From Bryobacterales bacterium (GTDB lineage: Bacteria; Acidobacteriota; Terriglobia; Bryobacterales; UBA6623): 64,000 nucleotides of DNA. The stretch is from the NCBI GenBank assembly GCA_965204435.1, contig OZ241997.1, forward strand, positions 2,926,160-2,990,159. Reading direction: 5' to 3'. Under the pieces are notes generated by a model that did not search any database, had not been told where the DNA came from, and saw only the letters and a list, made by a program, of their open reading frames with translations. This document shows positions 7,279 to 26,616 of the stretch, one piece after another; position 1 is the stretch's first letter; each line of letters opens with the position of its first letter. The translations under genes and the position numbers were made by a program.

Positions 7279-7693
7279 TTACGTGTCCGCGCAAGCGCTG
7301 CCACAGCGATCGTACACACAGCGATCATACCCAGTTCAGCAAGAGTTCACTATCTATATACTGAAACAGCCTATAGTGTCACAGTTCTAACGCCCATGCT
7401 GCTCATGCTGTCGGGAAACGGCTGAAAGTCATGGTGCCGCTGGATTCAGGCGGCGCGTCGAACTTGTGGAATTATCGCGGCAGTGACGCCAGTTGCCCGG
7501 CACCCCCCGCACAGAGCCAAGCAGGCGCGCTAGCGCACTCGGCTCCTGACTCTGATGTCTGACGGCAAATCGTTCTGTCGGCCACGGGTGGAGCAATCGC
7601 ACTGGCGGCCAGAGCGCTTTGCAGAGTCAGTCCGAGCGCTCCCAAGGGTATCGGTCCTTTGGACCTGTGCGAGTTCCGGAAAATCTGACCGCC

Positions 7694-9690
7694 GTGGAGT
7701 CGAGGAGAAGCGCGCCTGCCGTAGCGTGAGGGAATAGCTGTTTGCCGACCGCTTTCGCGTTCCGCCGGTGCCTCAGTCTTACGCATAGCTACGTTTCTTC
7801 TCCCCGCTCGTTGAACCGGACATGCGGATTTCCCGCATCCGGCTCCCGGTCGAGATCATGCCTTCGCCCATGGGAAGCTGGCCGTTCGCGGTGCAAGGTG
7901 AGTCAGGCCGAACTCAGTCCATAGCCGTGTGTCCGGGAAGCGCACGTACTTTCCGGACCTCACCTTATGCTTCCGGCACAGCCACTGGCGCAGCCGCTTG
8001 GTGGCGTGACGGTCCAGTGCACGGTAGGCCGGGCTGACTTGTCCGAGTTGGAAGTAGTTGGCCCATCCAAGCATGGCTCGATTCAGCCTTTCTACCACTA
8101 GTTCGGATTCCAACAGCCCGTACCGCGCTTCTGTCGTCTCGCTAATCTTGCGGCAGATGCTGCGGACGCTATCCCGGCTCGGTCGCGTGCCGACATAGGC
8201 ACGTCCCGTGCGCGGGCTATAGTTGCGTCCGATGCGGTACCCGAGGAACTCCACCGGTTCCTCCGGCACTCGCAGGCAGCGGGTCTTCGTCGCGTTAATC
8301 GGCAACCGGAGCGTTTCCATCATCCGTTCGACAGTGGCTCGCATGGCTTCCGCCGGGGCCCTGCCGCAGACCACGAAATCGTCCGCGAAGTTCACGATCT
8401 CCGCTTCGTACTGCTGGGCATAGCCCAGCCGCTTCCACCCCAGGATGAACCGCCGCATGTAGACGTTACTGAGCAAGGGTGAGATCGGAGCTCCCTGCGG
8501 AGTTCCCTTTCTCTCCCTTTTCGCCCGGTTCGTGCGGCGCTTGCCGCCCTTCCCGTCGTCCTCTTCCACGGCCATTTCCAGCCACATCTTGATCCATCCC
8601 AGCATCCGTCCGTCGCTCACGCGTCGCGCGATCGACTGGAGTAATTCGGAGTGCGGAATTTCCCCGAAGTAGTTGGCAAGATCGCCATCGACCACTTCCC
8701 TGTGTCCGGTGTTCACCAGCCGGTGCACGTGTCGCACTGCGTCCAGCGCGCTCCGGCCTTCCCGGTAGGCGTACTGTTCCGGTTGCAGGTCCGCTTCGAA
8801 GATCGGCGATAGCACCAGCGTCGCCGCCGTCTGCGCCACCCGGTCCCGGATGCACGGTATGCCCAAGGGGCGGAGTTTCCCCGGCTGCTTCTTCGGGATC
8901 AGCACCTGTCGTACCGCTCGCGGCCGGTAGGTGTTCTCCCGCAGCTGCTTCGCCAGTTCCCCCAGCCACCGGTCCACGCCCTGCTCCTGTATGTGCTCGA
9001 ATGTTTCTCCGTCCGCCCCGCTGGCTCCGCCGTTCCGGCGGACCGCTTGCCAGGCGGCCCCTAGCACATCCTCGCGCCATACCTTGTCGCTGAGTGTGTA
9101 GAACCGAAAGTCCGGGTCTCCCTTCGCTTTCGCATGCAATGCTGTCTGGAGTCTCCGAACCGAGTCTGGAGCTAGTAGGCTTCCGCCAGTCTCCACCTGT
9201 CCTTTCCTCCTTCCCGCATTCCTCTCGACCGAGGCCCCTTCACTCCACCGGTATTACCCGGCTTCCCCGCTACTGCGGGCCTCTCCGTCACCCTGCCGGC
9301 CCAAGCTGGCCCTCGCGGGTTCCCGGTTGGCGCGTGCACGCCACCGACAGGGCTTCCCGTGTTGCTGCTGTCTCCCTCTTACGTGCATGCCACCGTCAAT
9401 ACCCCGGCGGAACCGGCCGGTGCTCGCGTCGCTCGCTTCCCGGCCGCTGGCAGCCTTCCCCGAAATTTGGGCGGGTCGGCTTCCGCATCAATCCTTTCGA
9501 GGCCTGCTCAACGTTCACTACACGTTGTGGCCTGCACGCTCGCTGAACCACCCAAGGCGGTCCTTTCCCATCGAAGTGCTTCAGTCCGTTTCGTTACCTC
9601 CTCGAACCGCTCCGACTGCTACCGGCTGGAGCGACAGTTGCCGGGCGGGCTTCGCATCCCGCTGAGACACAGCGCCTTTCCACGGCGCAC
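7694..9690 (-). mobile_element. Group II intron (ribozyme plus RT ORF), about 2.0 kb
   Basis: 5' end GTGCGCCGTGG at 9690. Domain V GAGCCGGATGCGGGAAATCCGCATGTCCGGTTC near 7812-7845. 3' end ...CTCGACTCCAC at 7694. EBS1 CAAATT (9464-9469) is complementary to the 5' exon end AATTTG. Confidence 0.93.
7856..9196 (-). CDS. ltrA: Group II intron reverse transcriptase/maturase (no endonuclease domain)
   Basis: Motifs RPLGIPCIRDRVAQ, GTPQGAPISPLLSN, FADD, FLGY and maturase GWANYF; 446 aa. Confidence 0.95.
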   Translation of the reverse strand: METGGSLLAPDSVRRLQTALHAKAKGDPDFRFYTLSDKVWREDVLGAAWQAVRRNGGASGADGETFEHIQEQGVDRWLGELAKQLRENTYRPRAVRQVLIPKKQPGKLRPLGIPCIRDRVAQTAATLVLSPIFEADLQPEQYAYREGRSALDAVRHVHRLVNTGHREVVDGDLANYFGEIPHSELLQSIARRVSDGRMLGWIKMWLEMAVEEDDGKGGKRRTNRAKRERKGTPQGAPISPLLSNVYMRRFILGWKRLGYAQQYEAEIVNFADDFVVCGRAPAEAMRATVERMMETLRLPINATKTRCLRVPEEPVEFLGYRIGRNYSPRTGRAYVGTRPSRDSVRSICRKISETTEARYGLLESELVVERLNRAMLGWANYFQLGQVSPAYRALDRHATKRLRQWLCRKHKVRSGKYVRFPDTRLWTEFGLTHLAPRTASFPWAKA

Positions 9691-9798
9691 CAAATTCCGG
9701 AAATTATGGCCGGTTCGTCTGGTCCTGACCGGCCCGATACTGCCCTATCCTCCAGTTCCGGGAGTCCGAGTTCGGACTTCCGGGAACAGGAGGAGTTG

Positions 9799-11256
9799 AT
9801 GTACACAGATGCGAAGCGTCGTGATATTCAGTTGCTGCTGGCAGCGGGTGTTCCCCAGGAGCGAATCGCCGATCTGACGGGCGCGTCAGTCCGCACGATT
9901 CGGCGGATCGGACGCGAGCCGGCCGACCCTGGGGAGCGCGCTGCCAAGCCACAGGCCGCGGCGCCGCCCGGCCAGCCGCGACGAGCGAGCCCGGGTCGGC
10001 CGTCGCTGGTCGAGCCGTACCGGGACGCCGTGCTGGCGATGCTAGCGGAGACGCCGAAACTCAAGAGCCTGGAAGTGCTGCGGCGCGTGCGCGAGCGCGG
10101 CTACGCAGGAGGCAAGTCGGCGGTCTACGAGTTGGTCCGGCAGCTGCGCCCGCAGGCCGTGCGGCCGATCTGCCGCTTCGAGGGCGTGGCGGGCGAATTC
10201 AGCCAGCACGACTTCGGGGAAGTGCTGATCGAGTGGAGCGGTGGCGGCCGGACACGAGTGCACTTCTTTGCCTCGCGCCTGAAGTACTCCCGCTACACCC
10301 TGGTCACGCGCGTGCCGGACCAGCGGGTCGAGACGCTCGTGCGCACGCTGGCCGCCGATTTCGCGCGCATGGGGGGGCTGCCGCTGCTGGCAGTGTTCGA
10401 CCGGCCCAAGACGATTGCGACGCGATCGGATCCGAAGACCGGCGCAGTGCTGGCTTGGAACCCGACCTTCGCCGAAGCGACCGCCCGCCTGGGCGTTGCG
10501 GTCGAGGTCTGCTGGCCGTACCAGCCTCAGCAAAAGGGATCCGTGGAGAATGTGGTGGGCTGGGTCAAGGGCTCCTTCTTCAAGCCGCGGCAATTCCTCG
10601 ACGAGCACGACCTGGAGATGCAGTTGCAGGCTTGGCACGAGGAGGTCAACGAGCGGCGCGCCAATCGCGCCACCGAGCGCATACCCGGCGAACTGCTGCG
10701 GGAGCAGGAGCTGAGCCGTCTGCGGCCGGTCAAGCTGTTGCCCGAGCAACTCGACCTGCGCTATCCGGTGCGGGTCGGCCCGACCGGCATGGTGACGTTC
10801 CGGACCAACCGCTACTCGATGCCGGCCGAGGCTCTGGGCTACTCGGCGACGTTGCGCCTGTTCAGCGACCGGGTGGTCATCGAAGCGGGGCGCTACCGGG
10901 CCGAGCATCCGCGCCTGCAAGGCCGCAATGTGGTCTCGAGCCTGCCCGCGCACCGCGAGGGCCTGCTGGCCGCGGTGAGCGGAAAGCGAGGTCGCATGTA
11001 TCTGAAACGACAGCACTTGCTGGAGCTCGGCCGCGACGCAGAGCGGTTCCTGACCGAACTCGTGCACGTGCGGCCAAGGCACTGGCACGATGATGTCGAG
11101 CGGCTGCACGAACTGCTGCAAGCCTGCGGCAGCGAGGTCTTGCGGGACGCCTTCCGGCGGGTTGCGTGGCAGCCGGAGATCTCCGTGGCCGCGCTTGTCA
11201 GAGAAGTCAACGGCCGGGCCCCGCTGTTCGCCCGGGCCCCGGAGCAGGCCTCGTGA
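9799..11256 (+). CDS. istA: IS21 transposase IstA
   Basis: N-terminal HTH, RFEGVAGEFSQHDFG, FDRPK and KGSVEN. ATG at 9799 follows the RBS AGGAG. Confidence 0.95.
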   Translation: MYTDAKRRDIQLLLAAGVPQERIADLTGASVRTIRRIGREPADPGERAAKPQAAAPPGQPRRASPGRPSLVEPYRDAVLAMLAETPKLKSLEVLRRVRERGYAGGKSAVYELVRQLRPQAVRPICRFEGVAGEFSQHDFGEVLIEWSGGGRTRVHFFASRLKYSRYTLVTRVPDQRVETLVRTLAADFARMGGLPLLAVFDRPKTIATRSDPKTGAVLAWNPTFAEATARLGVAVEVCWPYQPQQKGSVENVVGWVKGSFFKPRQFLDEHDLEMQLQAWHEEVNERRANRATERIPGELLREQELSRLRPVKLLPEQLDLRYPVRVGPTGMVTFRTNRYSMPAEALGYSATLRLFSDRVVIEAGRYRAEHPRLQGRNVVSSLPAHREGLLAAVSGKRGRMYLKRQHLLELGRDAERFLTELVHVRPRHWHDDVERLHELLQACGSEVLRDAFRRVAWQPEISVAALVREVNGRAPLFARAPEQAS

Positions 11257-12050
11257 GCGCCCCCCGGCCCGCCGTCCCCGCCGCGGCCCGCCCAGCCGAC
11301 CCGCCCGGCGAGCTGGCCGCCCTGCTCAAGCGCCTGCACCTGGCCAACGCCCGGCGCACCTACCCCGAGTTCATCGAGCGCGCCGAGCGCGAGGCCTGGT
11401 CGTTCCACGAGTTCCTGCTCGCCCTGGCGCGCGAGGAAGTCGCCCATCGCGCCGAGACGCGCATCCAGCGCTGCGTGCGCAAGGCCCGCTTCCCCCAGCT
11501 GAAGACCGTCGAGGAATTCGACTTCTCGGTCCAGCCCGAACTCCGTCGCACCCTGCTCGGCTCCTGCTTCGGCCCCGAGTTCGTGGCCGAGGGACGCAAT
11601 TTGGTCCTCACCGGCCGCTCCGGCCGCGGCAAGACGCACTTGGCCACTGCCATCGCCTACCGCGCCATCCAGAACGGCTACGACGCGCTCTTCAGCACCG
11701 CCGCCGCGCTCATCGACGATCTCTCCCGAGCCAGCCACGAGGGCCGCTTCCTGGCGGCCCTCAAGGCCTATGTCCAGCCCGCCGTCCTGGCCATTGACGA
11801 AGTCGGCTATCTCAGCTACGGCCCCGACGCCGCCAACGTCCTCTACCACGTCGTCAACGCCCGCTGCGTCCAGCAGCGCTGCCTGCTGTTCACCACCAAC
11901 AAGCCGCTCAAGGACTGGGGTGCCGCCCTGCACGACCACGATCTGGCCGAGGCCATCATCGACCGCGTCCTCGAGCGCGGCCGCATCGTGGCATTGGAAG
12001 GACCCTCGATGCGCACCCGCCACTTGGAGGGAATCGACTATGAACGCTGA
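11253..12050 (+). CDS. istB: IS21 helper ATPase IstB
   Basis: Walker A GRSGRGKT, IDEVGY, TTNK and GPSMR. The GTG start overlaps the istA stop. Confidence 0.95.
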   Translation: MSAPRPAVPAAARPADPPGELAALLKRLHLANARRTYPEFIERAEREAWSFHEFLLALAREEVAHRAETRIQRCVRKARFPQLKTVEEFDFSVQPELRRTLLGSCFGPEFVAEGRNLVLTGRSGRGKTHLATAIAYRAIQNGYDALFSTAAALIDDLSRASHEGRFLAALKAYVQPAVLAIDEVGYLSYGPDAANVLYHVVNARCVQQRCLLFTTNKPLKDWGAALHDHDLAEAIIDRVLERGRIVALEGPSMRTRHLEGIDYER

Positions 12051-12277
12051 CCGAGAAGCCCGCACTCCGCGAGCATCTGCTAGCATGGTCCGACCCGTTT
12101 CAGCCGGGACGACTTCTGCCGCACCCTTGCCCGACCTCCCACGCCACCTGCCAAACCCCGGACGGGACCGGACCGGCTGCTCGCAGCCTCCCTGCCCATC
12201 GCCCGGCAGTGCCACCTCTAACTCTTACGCTTCGTCCCCTTCTCAGCCCCTTGCTGACCGGCCAGAATTTCCGGAAA

Positions 12278-13831
12278 TCAGAGGCCAGAATTTCCGGAAC
12301 CCACAGACCTGCGCCCGGAATTAGAAGTCTTGCACGATACGCCACCACATCGACGGCCCTCCCGACGGACCGACCGACGCATTGGGTGCCATAGGCCCGA
12401 GCGCGGTGCCTCGCTACCGGTTGGGATCCTAGCATCCCAGCGCGGCTTGTAGACGATCGGATGACGCTCTTTGGCTCTAGCGGGGTCGTAGTCGGGATTG
12501 GGTGCTGGCATCGTGGCACCAACGGACTCTCTCCACGCCGCCACTGCCTCCCGCATTGCGGCAGTGCGCTTCTTTTCCAGCGAGGACAGATCCTTGCTCT
12601 CCGCTGGATCCTCGATGAGGTTGTAGAGTTCAACGTGCGAGTCTTCGTAGAACTCGATCAGCTTCCAGCCTTTCTTGCGAATTGCCGCGGCAGGTGTGGA
12701 TCCCGCATTTGAGTAGTGCGGATAGTGCCAGTAGAGCGTGTCTCGCTCGAGCTCTCCGGTCTGCTTGAGCAAGGGCACGAGGCTCTTGCCGTCTGTGGTG
12801 TGGCCGTCTGTATCTGCCGCCGCGGCCATTTCAAGCAGCGTGGGATAGAAGTCGATGCTGCTGACAGGTGTGTCTTCGACTGCACCCGCTTGAACCGCTT
12901 TGGGCCAGCGCACGATCAGCGGCTCGCGGATGCCGCCCTCCCAGATGTAGCCCTTGCCCGATCGGAAGCCGCCGTTGAAGGCGCGGCTCGCCACTCCCCC
13001 GTTGTCGGAGAAGAAGAAGACGGCGGTGTCGGAGGCGAGATCGTGACGCTCCAGCAAGGCGAGCAGGCGTCCCACGCTCTGGTCGACACCTTCGACCATC
13101 GCGGCGTAGACCGCGTGGTTCCGGTTGGTCGGATCGGTCCTGCCCGCGTAGCTGTCGATCAGGCTGCGCTTGGCTTGGATAGGCCCGTGCACTGAGTAGT
13201 AGGACAGATACAGGAAGAACGGGCGCTCCCGATTCTCTTCGATGAACTGTTCGGCGGCCTTGGTCAACTTGTCAGTCAAGTAGTCGCCGGGCTGAGCACC
13301 GGGGACTTGGAGCCACTTGTGCGGCGCGAACATGGTTCTGTGCGAGCCCAAGTGGCCGGACGCGAAGCTCTCGTCGAACCCGCGCTTCTCCGGCATGTAA
13401 TCGCCTGCTCCGAGGTGCCACTTGCCGATGCAGGCGGTGGCGTAGCCGGCCGCGCTGAGCGGCTCCGCGATCACGGTCTCGTCGAGTGGCAGACCTAGGG
13501 GGAGTTGAGCTTGTAGCAGCTTGGCGTGGGGCAGGACGTTGCCGGGCAGGTACTGCGTCAGACCGAGTCGGGCGGGCCAGCGGCCGGTCAGAATACTGGC
13601 CCGTGTCGGAGAACAGTTGGGGGCTGCGGCGTAGGCGTTCGTGAAGCGCATGCCCTCTTCGGCCAGACGGTCAATGTTGGGCGTGCGGTGATAGCTGTTG
13701 CCATAGGCCGCAACATCGGCGTAGCCCATGTCGTCGAGAAGCAGGAAGATGATGTTGGGACGATCTGCTGTCTGGGCTAGGGATTCGGCCGTCGAACCGA
13801 GGGCTGCAACGGCGCACAACGCCGCGGACAA
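12278..13831 (-). CDS. Type I (formylglycine) sulfatase; native start removed by an IS630 fragment and the ORF tail runs into the IS21 end
   Basis: PNIIFLLLDDMG, CSPTR, GKWHLG, SDNGG, GKG..WEGGIR and ELYNL..DP.E. Only part of a signal peptide remains. Confidence 0.88.
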   Translation of the reverse strand: MSAALCAVAALGSTAESLAQTADRPNIIFLLLDDMGYADVAAYGNSYHRTPNIDRLAEEGMRFTNAYAAAPNCSPTRASILTGRWPARLGLTQYLPGNVLPHAKLLQAQLPLGLPLDETVIAEPLSAAGYATACIGKWHLGAGDYMPEKRGFDESFASGHLGSHRTMFAPHKWLQVPGAQPGDYLTDKLTKAAEQFIEENRERPFFLYLSYYSVHGPIQAKRSLIDSYAGRTDPTNRNHAVYAAMVEGVDQSVGRLLALLERHDLASDTAVFFFSDNGGVASRAFNGGFRSGKGYIWEGGIREPLIVRWPKAVQAGAVEDTPVSSIDFYPTLLEMAAAADTDGHTTDGKSLVPLLKQTGELERDTLYWHYPHYSNAGSTPAAAIRKKGWKLIEFYEDSHVELYNLIEDPAESKDLSSLEKKRTAAMREAVAAWRESVGATMPAPNPDYDPARAKERHPIVYKPRWDARIPTGSEAPRSGLWHPMRRSVRREGRRCGGVSCKTSNSGRRSVGSGNSGL

Positions 13832-24355: not shown

Positions 24356-25834
24356 ATGCACGATACAACCAAGCGCTTCGAAATCGAGACCCTGCTCAAG
24401 GCCGGTCTTGCCAAGGCCCGAGTGGCGGAAATTGCCGAGGTTTCGCTGCGGACCGTTCACCGGGTCCGGGCCGAGGTCGAGGCGCGCTCGGCCGAGACGG
24501 AGGGGACAGACACAGAGGCCGGCACGCAGGCGTCGCGCCGTCCCCCGGACGGCGGTCCAGGCCGGCCCTCGAAGACGGCGGACTACCGGGAACTGGTGGC
24601 TTCCATCTTGGAGGCGCAGCCCGGGCTGAAGACCCTTGAGGTCCTGCGCCGCGCGCGCTTGGCCGGCTATGGCGGCGGCAAGACTGCCTTGTACTCCCTG
24701 GTGCGCGAGCTGCGACCACGGACCGTGCGCCCGATCTGCCGCTTCGAAGGCGTTGCGGGCGAGTTCACGCAGCACGATTTCGGGGAGGTGCGGGTGCGCT
24801 GGAGGGGGAACGGCCAGCTCGAGCGGGTGCAGTTCTTCTGCAGCCGTCTGAAATTCTCGCGCTTCTCGCTGCTGGTGCTGGTCGCCAACCAGCGCACCGA
24901 GACCTTGGTGCGGTCGATGGCGGAGCACTTCGAGCGGATGGGCGGGATCCCGCTGCTGGCGGTCTTCGACCGGCCGACGACGGCGGCGCTGAAGTCGGAT
25001 CCGAAGACCGGCGAGGTGCTGGAGTGGAACCCGGTGTTCGCCGACGCGACGCAGCGCATGGGGCTGGGGGTGGACCTATGCTGGCCGGGACGTCCCAATC
25101 AGAAGGGCACGGTCGAGAATCTTGTCGGCTGGGCCAAGGGCTCGTTCTTCAAGGTCCGCCAGTTCCATGACCGGGCCGACCTGGAGGCGCAGCTGGCGGA
25201 CTGGCTGGTCGAGATCAACGAGCGCCGTCCCTGCCGGGCCACCGGCTGCGTGCCGGCCGAGTTGCTGGCCGAGGAGCGCCAGCGGCTGCGCCCCCTGCGC
25301 CTGCGCCCGGCCGAGCTGGCCCTGCGCCTGCCGGTCAGCGTCGGCCCCACCGCCATGGTCGAGCACGAGACCAACAAGTACTCGATGCCGCCCGAAGCGT
25401 GCGGCTTTCCCGGCACGCTGCACCTGTTCCGCGACCGCGTGCGGATCGTGGCGGGCCGCTACCACGCCGAGCACAAGCGCTTGCCCGCCTCCAGCCGCGG
25501 CGTGTCGAACCTGCCGGCCCACCGCCGGGCCATGCTGGAGGCGGTCAGCGGCAAGCGCGGCCGCCAATACCGCATGCGCGAGCATCTGTTCCAGCTCGGC
25601 CCGGCCGCCAAGGAGGTGATCACCGAGATCATCTACGCCGAACAGCGCTCCTGGAACGACAGCATCGAGCGGCTCCACGAACTGCTCCAGCTCTACGGCG
25701 ATGACGCCCTGCGCGCCTGCTTCGAGCGCCACCGCGGCCAGCCCGGCTGCCGCGTCGCTGACATCGCCCGCGAGTTCGCCCGCGAACAGTTCCCCCTGCC
25801 GTTCGGCAACGGCACCCACGGAGGCCCGCGATGA
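24356..25834 (+). CDS. istA: IS21 transposase IstA
   Basis: Start MHDTTKRFEIE after AGGAGG; RFEGVAGEFTQHDFG and KGTVEN. Confidence 0.94.
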   Translation: MHDTTKRFEIETLLKAGLAKARVAEIAEVSLRTVHRVRAEVEARSAETEGTDTEAGTQASRRPPDGGPGRPSKTADYRELVASILEAQPGLKTLEVLRRARLAGYGGGKTALYSLVRELRPRTVRPICRFEGVAGEFTQHDFGEVRVRWRGNGQLERVQFFCSRLKFSRFSLLVLVANQRTETLVRSMAEHFERMGGIPLLAVFDRPTTAALKSDPKTGEVLEWNPVFADATQRMGLGVDLCWPGRPNQKGTVENLVGWAKGSFFKVRQFHDRADLEAQLADWLVEINERRPCRATGCVPAELLAEERQRLRPLRLRPAELALRLPVSVGPTAMVEHETNKYSMPPEACGFPGTLHLFRDRVRIVAGRYHAEHKRLPASSRGVSNLPAHRRAMLEAVSGKRGRQYRMREHLFQLGPAAKEVITEIIYAEQRSWNDSIERLHELLQLYGDDALRACFERHRGQPGCRVADIAREFAREQFPLPFGNGTHGGPR

Positions 25835-26616
25835 AGCCGCCCGCCGTCTCCCCGCAACAGCTCGAGGCCATGCTCAAGCGCCTCCATCTCGCCTGCGCCC
25901 GGCGGTCCTACTGCGAGCTCGTCGAGCAGGCCGAGCGCGGCGCCTGGTCCTTCCGCGACTTCCTCGCCGCCCTGGCCTCGGCCGAGATCGAGCATCGCCG
26001 CCAGACCCGCCTGCGCCGCTGTGTCCGCCAGGCTCGCTTCCCGGTCCTGCACACCCTCGAGGAATTCGACTTCTCCGTCCAGCCCGAACTCCGCCCCCTG
26101 CTGCTCGGCTCCGCCTTCGCCCCCGAGTTCGCCGCCGATGGCGGCTGCCTTGTCCTCAAGGGTCGCAGCGGTCGCGGCAAAACCCATCTCGCGACCGCCA
26201 TTGCCTACCAAGCCATCCTCCACGGCTACGATGCCCTCTTCGCCACCGCCAACGATCTGGTCGAGACCCTCTCGCTCGCAGCCCGCAACGGCCGCCTCCG
26301 CGACGCCTTGGCCGCCTACGTCCGCCCGCAACTCTTAGTCTGTGACGAAGTCGGATACCTCGCCCACGGCCCCGATGCCGCCAACGTGCTCTTCCATGTC
26401 GTCGACGAGCGCCACCGCCGCCGTCGCTCGATGGTCTTCACCACCAACAAGCCGCTGGAGCTCTGGGGCCGCGTCCTGCACGACCCCGACCTCGCCGAAG
26501 CCATTCTCGACCGCATCCTCGAGCGCGGCCGCATCGTCACGCTCGAAGGACCCTCCATGCGCACCCGCCACCTCGACCCGGCGCCGGGTCCGTCTGACCA
26601 GGAGACTGCCTCATGA
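25831..26616 (+). CDS. istB: IS21 helper ATPase IstB
   Basis: Motifs GRSGRGKT, CDEVGY, TTNK and GPSMR. Confidence 0.95.
   Translation: MKPPAVSPQQLEAMLKRLHLACARRSYCELVEQAERGAWSFRDFLAALASAEIEHRRQTRLRRCVRQARFPVLHTLEEFDFSVQPELRPLLLGSAFAPEFAADGGCLVLKGRSGRGKTHLATAIAYQAILHGYDALFATANDLVETLSLAARNGRLRDALAAYVRPQLLVCDEVGYLAHGPDAANVLFHVVDERHRRRRSMVFTTNKPLELWGRVLHDPDLAEAILDRILERGRIVTLEGPSMRTRHLDPAPGPSDQETAS

Follow-up and report, generated by a model that had tools for sequence, protein, structure and literature searches.

The window analysed here, a 64,000-nucleotide (nt) stretch of a Bryobacterales genome, contains an insertion sequence (IS) of the IS21 family whose left end is interrupted by a group II intron. 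The intron encodes a reverse transcriptase (RT) with a maturase domain and no endonuclease. It is oriented antisense to the IS genes istA and istB, and its insertion point is the exact boundary between the inner repeat L2 and the outer repeat L1, 26 bp inside the left tip. An identical copy of the intron was found at a second site of the genome. We conclude that an intact and recently active endonuclease-less intron has probably entered this one IS21 copy by retrohoming, into the bottom strand of its left terminal repeats. Coordinates refer to the window unless they carry a prefix such as G000; G000:C1 is the window's own genome (6.36 Mb).

The intron and its position in the IS21 left end

The insertion point was defined by empty sites. 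Four uninterrupted IS21 copies in the genome read TGCGAGTTCCGGAAAATCTGACCGCC directly followed by CAAATTCCGG across it, and the deletion of 7694-9690 from the window yields TGCGAGTTCCGGAAAATCTGACCGCC followed by CAAATTCCGGAAATTATGGCC. The removal therefore restores the left end, as the original prediction had stated from the letters alone, although its string contained five A's where the sequence has four. The intron-free version of the element was 98.6-99.9% identical to the four uninterrupted copies. The restored left end also mirrored the right end, as predicted, with an alignment score of 23.5, whereas 100 shuffled queries gave 13 at the 95th percentile and 14 at the maximum. The duplicated GACCTG of 6 bp flanks the whole element, and target duplications of 5-6 bp were read by eye at five IS21 copies. 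The predicted duplication was correct; the end of the element had been placed one base too far, and the element spans 7668-12305. The two TTCCGGAA repeats that flank the intron occupy 7674-7681 and 9695-9702. In the right-end repeats the GAATTTG of the left end is replaced by AAATCAG or AACCCAC, and the target is found in the left end only.

The ribozyme was recognised by two Rfam models. The match in domain I covers model positions 1-138 of 138 and exceeds the gathering score of 49. The match to domains V/VI covers model positions 1-77 of 77 and equals the gathering score of 40 exactly, so it is borderline. The intron ends fit a group II intron, with GTGCG for the conserved 5' GUGYG and a 3' end ...CAC. 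In the encoded protein of 446 amino acids, RVT_1 was found at residues 100-322 (E 3e-32), the FADD motif at 270-273 by motif search and GIIM at 345-413 (E 1.8e-14). The protein stops 33 residues past the GIIM match; no D/En endonuclease region follows the X domain, and the protein contains no HNH or other Pfam domain. The lack of D/En after the X domain is a feature of the endonuclease-less intron lineages (classes A, C, D, E, F and others). Rfam, Pfam and the four empty copies together bear out the predicted endonuclease-less intron, antisense and exactly between L1 and L2.

The class of the intron was approached in several ways. The nearest solved structures to the protein are 7uim and 6ar1 (E about 1e-42), both RTs of group IIC introns, but these matches are not decisive for the class. 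The class D C-terminal motif LX3AX3PXLF[V/A]HW, sought in the protein as a regular expression, gave no match. A class signature was also sought in PMC3552965, whose accessible part held nothing usable, and a literature search on the Rfam family name group-II-D1D4-4 found no papers. The local minimum free energy fold of 9380-9560 on the minus strand was uninformative (z = -0.55).

The data from the runs X1, X3, X5 and X19 are contigs and not reads, and they show presence, not absence. RNA contigs of run X19 cover 9607-9656 only, a conserved segment of the intron. A skip joint at 7692/9690 in runs X1 and X3 was set aside as evidence on this locus; because its short side has at most 26 letters, it may stem from the empty IS21 copies.

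Table 1. Features of the interrupted IS21 element and its intron in the window
Feature	Position	Strand	Basis or remark
Left target-site duplication GACCTG, 6 bp	7662..7667	.	Read directly
IS21-family element	7668..12305	+	TGCGAG...CCCACA, TG..CA ends, two TTCCGGAA-containing repeats at each end
IS21 left tip, outer repeat L1 (TGCGAGTTCCGGAAAATCTGACCGCC)	7668..7693	+	Intron 3' exon on the minus strand
Group II intron	7694..9690	-	1,997 bp, 5' GTGCG...CTCCAC 3'; boundaries set by empty sites
Intron domains V/VI	7694..7847	-	RF00029 Intron_gpII, 40.0 bits
Intron-encoded protein, 446 amino acids, RT and maturase	7856..9196	-	Pfam and motif search
Exon-binding site 1 (EBS1), CAAATT in RNA, intron nt 222-227	9464..9469	-	6/6 Watson-Crick pairs with 5' exon AATTTG
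Candidate EBS2 GGAUUG, variable loop CCUCGAAA..GCGG	9489..9494	-	Pairs with TAATTT at -16..-11
5' part of intron domain I	9520..9664	-	RF02003 group-II-D1D4-4, 68.9 bits, E 1.6e-13
IS21 inner repeat L2 (CAAATTCCGGAAATTATGGCC)	9691..9711	+	5' exon end on the minus strand; aligns with the right-end repeats
istA, IS21 transposase	9799..11256	+	Mu-transpos_C_2 E 6.3e-9; rve E 6.4e-6; HTH_23; rve_3
istB, AAA+ helper	11253..12050	+	IstB_IS21 E 1.1e-60; GTG start overlaps the istA stop codon
IS21 right end, R2 and R1 (GGCCAGAATTTCCGGAA twice)	12260..12305	+	Ends ...CCCACA; inverted-repeat partner of the restored left end
Right target-site duplication GACCTG	12306..12311	.	Read directly

The likely start of istA, the ATG at 9799 behind GGAGGAG, was picked by eye in a frame that is open from 9706; the rve, HTH_23 and rve_3 matches in IstA fall below the curated Pfam cut-offs. 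A second, divergent IS21-family element lies at 24626-26571 of the window; over 1,988 nt it is 69.7% identical to the istAB region, and it has a twin at G000:C1:4707231-4709176. Elsewhere in the genome, a 113-nt fragment of the intron 5' end was found at G000:C1:2253774-2253885 (85.8% identity), and intron fragments that stop near nt 105-113 recur in the genomes G004, G013, G014, G017 and G023.

Target recognition by the intron RNA

Relatives of the intron were collected from three sources. The first was a set of 41 genomes of the same order, 29 with a match, including 22 of the 24 other genomes of the genus. The second comprised 20 full-length copies together with their flanks, plus another 30 5' junctions. 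The third consisted of 78 loci taken from a scan in which each species was represented by one genome and 386 stretches encode a relative. In the domain I alignment of the relatives two loops vary while their stems are constant, and the stem around EBS1 is supported by this alignment. The CAAATT-type loop tracks the last six exon bases, as in GCTATG/CATAGC, GACGAA/TTCGTC and TGAAGT/ACTTCA. The pairing was measured on 120 junctions, from which the 18 with another intron's 3' end as 5' flank were removed, leaving 82 distinct junctions with 38 EBS1 hexamers. On average 5.40 of the 6 positions were paired with the exon. For a control, EBS1 was paired with the exons of other lineages, which gave a mean of 2.68 and a maximum of 3.10 in 500 draws. 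The covariation of EBS1 with its intron-binding site (IBS1), for which the original prediction had proposed a test in relatives, was therefore found, and the predicted EBS1 of the present intron itself was correct. The relatives' proteins are 67-88% identical, yet they come with these 38 hexamers.

At the IS21 site both partner sequences lie within L2, IBS1 at 9691-9696 and the IBS2-like TAATTT at 9701-9706. The EBS2 signal between loop and exon was modest in the relatives, with a longest helix of 4.18 versus 3.46 in the control. Among the 85 distinct 5' exons, T was found at -16 in 45, A at -15 in 43, and A or G at -14 in 43 and 19, respectively; no conservation was observed in them upstream of -17. 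This T-A-R at -16 to -14 is conserved at the 85 junctions whatever the EBS1 and EBS2 sequence, and in several targets it coincides with the (C)CTAG of an IS tip or the TAG stop codon of a host gene, e.g. at L033.

The original prediction had also noted a pairing of 11 nt across the ligated exons. It exists: the plus strand at 9464-9474 equals the ligated exons AATTTG and GGCGG, and the complementarity is made up of EBS1-IBS1 in the 5' half and of GGCGG with CCGCC in the 3' half. The CCGCC half uses a GCC that precedes EBS1 in most Bryobacterales relatives and is kept there beside differing 3' exons (TGACA, TCTGA, AGTTG, ACCCG). The second intron copy in the genome has the 3' exon ATAAG, without GGCGG. 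Since GCC is constant despite the varied 3' exons and the second copy lies before ATAAG, the 3' half is neither a required nor a conserved recognition element. By our own arithmetic from base frequencies, a 5-nt match has a probability of about 0.3%; the 3' half could add affinity at the IS21 site. For EBS3/delta, the pairing of alignment columns with the +1 base in 15 relatives gave two weak candidates, neither of which fits this genome, and the base 5' of EBS1 does not track the +1 base in relatives.

The motif TAATTT-N3-6-A[AG]TTTG has 7 matches in the 6.36-Mb genome, where about 0.3 are expected by base composition. These are five full IS21 left ends, one solo left end (4047219) and the site of the second intron copy. 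All five unoccupied matches are IS21 left ends, which is the independent information in this count. The second intron copy lies on the minus strand at G000:C1:2880227-2882223, about 44 kb left of the window start. Its identity to the first copy over 1997 of 1997 bases, at a different site, is an indirect sign of retromobility. The EBS1 pairing comprises six Watson-Crick pairs at the IS21 site versus five and one G-U at this second site. The cumulative GC skew located the origin at about 4.49 Mb and the terminus at about 0.89 Mb, so both minus-strand copies (2.88 and 2.93 Mb) lie on the lagging-strand template.

Insertion sites of related introns

The relatives are spread over Acidobacteriota, Alphaproteobacteria, Gemmatimonadota, Rhodothermales and others, as labelled in the database records. 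They repeatedly sit 2-26 nt from the tips of IS elements of other families, with IS boundaries judged from flanks of 3-3.5 kb only. In G003 and G022 the host is a 1.69-kb IS with ends beginning CAGC and 9-bp duplications TCGCTTGAC and CCCCGGGGC, and the intron is inserted 2 nt inside its left tip. Among the ten copies in G003 whose left tip is preserved at an identity of at least 92%, four carry an intron. The G003 introns are 99.65-99.9% alike and the IS copies that hold them 77-100%; because the introns are more alike than their hosts, they point to independent homing and not to co-transposition. This IS (L028:1555-2895 on the minus strand; G003, G022, L098-L103) has 46 matches each in G003 and G022, and its open reading frame (ORF) of 447 amino acids matched no Pfam family at E 0.001 or better.

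To find further tips, the two exons of each site were joined and the flanks were searched for an inverted-repeat partner. Partners with a score of at least 15 were obtained, besides the window (23.5), for G021a/d (21), L066/67/70/71 (15.5-17.5), L092 (18), L110 (19.5, DDE_Tnp_1_4), L123 (28) and L098/L100 (15-16). The partners in G021a/d, L066/67/70/71, L092, L110 and L123 place the intron 17-25 nt from a tip. In G021a/d it lies 18 nt from the tip of an IS with a DruA/DDE_Tnp_1 transposase, and in L066/67/70/71 both ends of a 2.5-kb IS are used. Scores of at least 15 were reached by 18 of 84 sites versus 18 of 472 random windows in the same loci, and scores of at least 18 by 10 of 84 versus 4 of 472; the 84 sites include loci fetched twice, e.g. 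L055 = G021d and L089 = G016a. Some of the partner scores have causes other than an IS, namely inverted intron copies in three cases (L089, G016a, L119) and a tRNA-like repeat in L114. For L095 (score 15) the partner match falls 15-40 nt upstream of where the intron inserted, and its origin is unclear. When the targets with both flanks known were grouped by hand, 7 of about 46 groups were firmly within 26 nt of an IS tip and three more were suggestive (L094, L111, L116). Fusion transposases of the type DruA (DUF4338)-DDE_Tnp_1 are frequent intron hosts in the genus (L013:49-2508, L017:693-2462, L020:6406-7488).

The remaining sites include positions directly behind host genes (L033, L034, L006), among housekeeping genes (L104-L109, L115) and, in one case, within a transposase ORF (G003a). 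The AATAAT-type 5' exons of G008, G016, G018 and G019 were considered as IS21 ends and rejected, as tblastn with the IstA of the window gave no match in their flanks. In these flanks Pfam showed a pair of transposase genes of the rve/Mu type upstream of L037 and, at 1.5 kb from L040, a gene of the IS630 type; of the other ORFs, the six with a family match are host genes and two match no family. L116 carries two introns in three direct repeats of the ATGTCAYCCAAYGTAGC type, with an antisense istB 254 nt further on. Another repeat interrupts this istB, and istA was not detected there, which makes L116 one distant case beside an istB remnant, suggestive only. Two introns in neighbouring direct repeats, 46 and 22 nt apart, were observed at L116:3010-7041 and L118:3010-7017. 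At L114 (2517-2537 and 2995-3016) a relative sits in a repeat resembling the end of a tRNA T-arm (GCGGGTTCGAATCCCGCC), and the partner repeat is located some 470 nt upstream, an arrangement like that at the border of an integrated element. Some introns are themselves split: at G001:C2:178803-183662 and G022:C8:1161065-1166404 the break is at the same position, 1018-1024, with these 7 nt on both sides. The splitting insertions are about 2.9 and 3.3 kb long and may be an element that targets this spot of the intron ORF.

Head-to-tail tandems account for 18 of the 120 junctions in the relatives, and L088 shows up to five consecutive intron 5' ends. In L082, L083 and L088, contigs of Paracoccaceae metagenome-assembled genomes, the arrays contain three to five 5' ends, mostly with a period of 1,999 nt and with abutting introns.

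A broader interpretation, which we put forward tentatively and consider possible but doubtful, is that the intron belongs to a clade of endonuclease-less introns in several phyla which live mainly on the extreme tips of IS elements of several families. In such a clade the conserved distal T-A-R at -16 to -14 would be read by an invariant part of the ribonucleoprotein, often coinciding with the (C)CTAG tip of IS4/IS1380-like elements. EBS1 and EBS2 would change fast, following the subterminal sequence of each IS. The introns would then be parasites that disable IS ends, in the present case by separating two IstA-binding repeats, and could shape IS dynamics in IS-rich symbiont genomes.

Probable homing, likely consequence for the IS and known systems

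One member of the IS21 family carries two direct repeats per end, and its IstA needs two complete repeats in the pre-cleaved end for integration, with the catalytic IstA subunits bound to R1 and the others to R2, according to the part of the source available to us (PMC10122671). In the window the spacing of L1 and L2 is now 1,997 bp. With L1 2 kb away from L2 and IstA depending on adjacent repeats, the left end would be disabled, and the IS21 copy is most likely immobilised. The intron lies outside any spliceable transcript of the IS; since it is antisense and between repeats that IstA needs, splicing cannot repair the IS. The locus would be a clear natural example in which one mobile element disables another at the level of DNA recognition.

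For the insertion itself we favour a mechanism as described for the introns RmInt1 and RmInt2. The intron RNA would have reverse-spliced into single-stranded lagging-strand-template DNA at the replication fork, with the nascent DNA as primer. The IS21 left end would be the main homing site of this intron variant and the second copy would occupy an ectopic look-alike site. In our reading the variant recently acquired a specificity that fits L2, so that the IS21 end is its main target pool, with homing far from saturating. The adaptation to the IS21 end in the original prediction is supported in part, by six of the seven motif matches and by a metagenome contig of 3,901 nt from run X5. This contig covers 7666-8170 without differences and then enters a foreign flank, which is absent from this genome at up to 4 mismatches; the same junction of L1 and intron is therefore present at a different locus elsewhere. 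Repeated use of one position in the terminal repeats of a given IS amounts here to one of six ends and the X5 junction, and is clear in relatives with other IS families.

Several observations weigh against this reading. Five of the six IS21 left ends in the genome are empty. Two of these (2033353 and 2036522) have the same favourable strand and replichore as the occupied end, and the three others are in the unfavourable orientation; counted over all sites, 2 of 4 favourable and 0 of 3 unfavourable ones are occupied, numbers that are too small for a test. There is also some circularity in the motif count, since the two occupied sites served to define the motif. The site of the identical second copy is unique, AT-rich, non-IS and intergenic, reading ...CATAATTTTGTAGTTTG up to the insertion point and ATAAGGTTATAAAATATGG behind it, and no repeat was found within about 880 nt of it. 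In run X3 the intron carries the flanks of this non-IS site, and every IS21 left end seen there is empty, so the non-IS copy may be the older one. The EBS2 pairing at the IS21 site is weak, with three Watson-Crick and three G-U pairs. The promoter scan found no sigma-70-like promoter on the intron strand upstream of 9690, which leaves the expression of the intron at this locus unexplained. The original prediction had also proposed to test whether relatives sit repeatedly in IS21 ends, and had held that relatives in unrelated targets would make the insertion a one-off. An L2-type repeat of IS21 was found in none of the 85 distinct 5' exons, which for IS21 is largely the latter outcome. The closest relatives, in G011 (85-94%), G002 (87-89%) and G017 (90%), have other 5' exons, and none of their nine junctions is an IS21 end. 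The replication-fork mechanism is drawn from RmInt1 and RmInt2 and applied here to two copies, and the immobilisation is drawn from in-vitro work on IS5376, a different IS21 member.

Much of this would be expected if the insertion were a one-off ectopic event, with the habitual target an AT-rich non-IS site or a lost site, L2 merely resembling it and the position without adaptive meaning. The empty left ends, the intergenic copy, run X3 and the nine closest junctions all fit such an event. We nevertheless hold it to be rather unlikely, because the EBS1 pairing is fully Watson-Crick at the IS21 site only, the five unoccupied motif matches are all IS21 left ends, the X5 contig has the same junction beside another flank and homing into IS tips is frequent in the clade. 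That the intron rides on the IS as part of a transposing 4.6-kb unit is clearly unlikely. A later arrival of the intron would leave the same target duplication around the whole unit, and the X5 flank could reflect a moved composite; but the genome contains one such unit versus four intron-less IS21 copies, and the introns of relatives are much more alike than their host IS elements, which points to independent homing. A wrong joining of repeats in the assembly is conceivable since intron and IS21 are both multi-copy, yet extremely improbable, as the junction falls to the base at an EBS1-complementary site, removal of the intron leaves precisely the sequence read in the empty copies and the independent X5 contig spans L1 into the intron. 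Taken together, retrohoming into the IS21 left end remains the explanation that we prefer. The clade as a whole shows a target specificity that turns over fast, with the tips of unrelated IS families hit repeatedly. It bears on how endonuclease-less introns find safe sites and offers natural examples of retargeting for gene-targeting design.

The closest precedent is RmInt2, a class D intron without D and En domains, all copies of which lie within the inverted repeats of ISRm17, with both repeats as targets; it has a preference for the lagging-strand template, four EBS2 pairs are enough for it, and head-to-tail copies of it occur, as stated in the accessible part of PMC4615759. This behaviour is described again in the accessible part of PMC5894124, where the insertion of the intron blocks the spread of the IS. 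The present intron shares with RmInt2 a probable homing site in a non-coding terminal repeat of an IS, the placement on the lagging-strand template, the head-to-tail tandems (in relatives) and the relaxed EBS2 pairing. It differs from RmInt2 in lacking the C-terminal class D motif and hence belongs to another lineage that behaves alike. Its host is of the IS21 family, the target is in the left end only, one of six ends is occupied and the insertion separates two transposase-binding direct repeats, unlike in ISRm17. RmInt1 in ISRm2011-2 (IS630 family) and Sr.md.I1 in an IS66 transposase ORF are also endonuclease-less and have IS elements as natural targets. Introns of this type are thought to block the spread of the IS, again from the accessible part of that source (PMC5894124). 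Their targets are internal to the IS, in its body or ORF, and splicing could there give back an intact mRNA, whereas the present intron lies antisense in repeats for DNA recognition.

Group IIC introns insert behind terminators and in attC sites. The present intron resembles them by the missing En domain, by the closest RT structures and by targeting non-coding features of mobile DNA. In contrast to them, it has an EBS1 of 6 nt, an EBS2-type loop and D1D4-4 as the best Rfam match, and the sites are IS tips or AT-rich intergenic sequence and not positions behind terminator stem-loops. In the literature searched, partly present as titles and the beginnings of abstracts, no paper on IS21 ends as an intron target was found. 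As RmInt2 and ISRm17 established the principle, the present case opens no new category. In conclusion, introns that home into IS ends are already known, and what is new is the position between L1 and L2 of an IS21 element and the breadth of the clade that targets IS tips.

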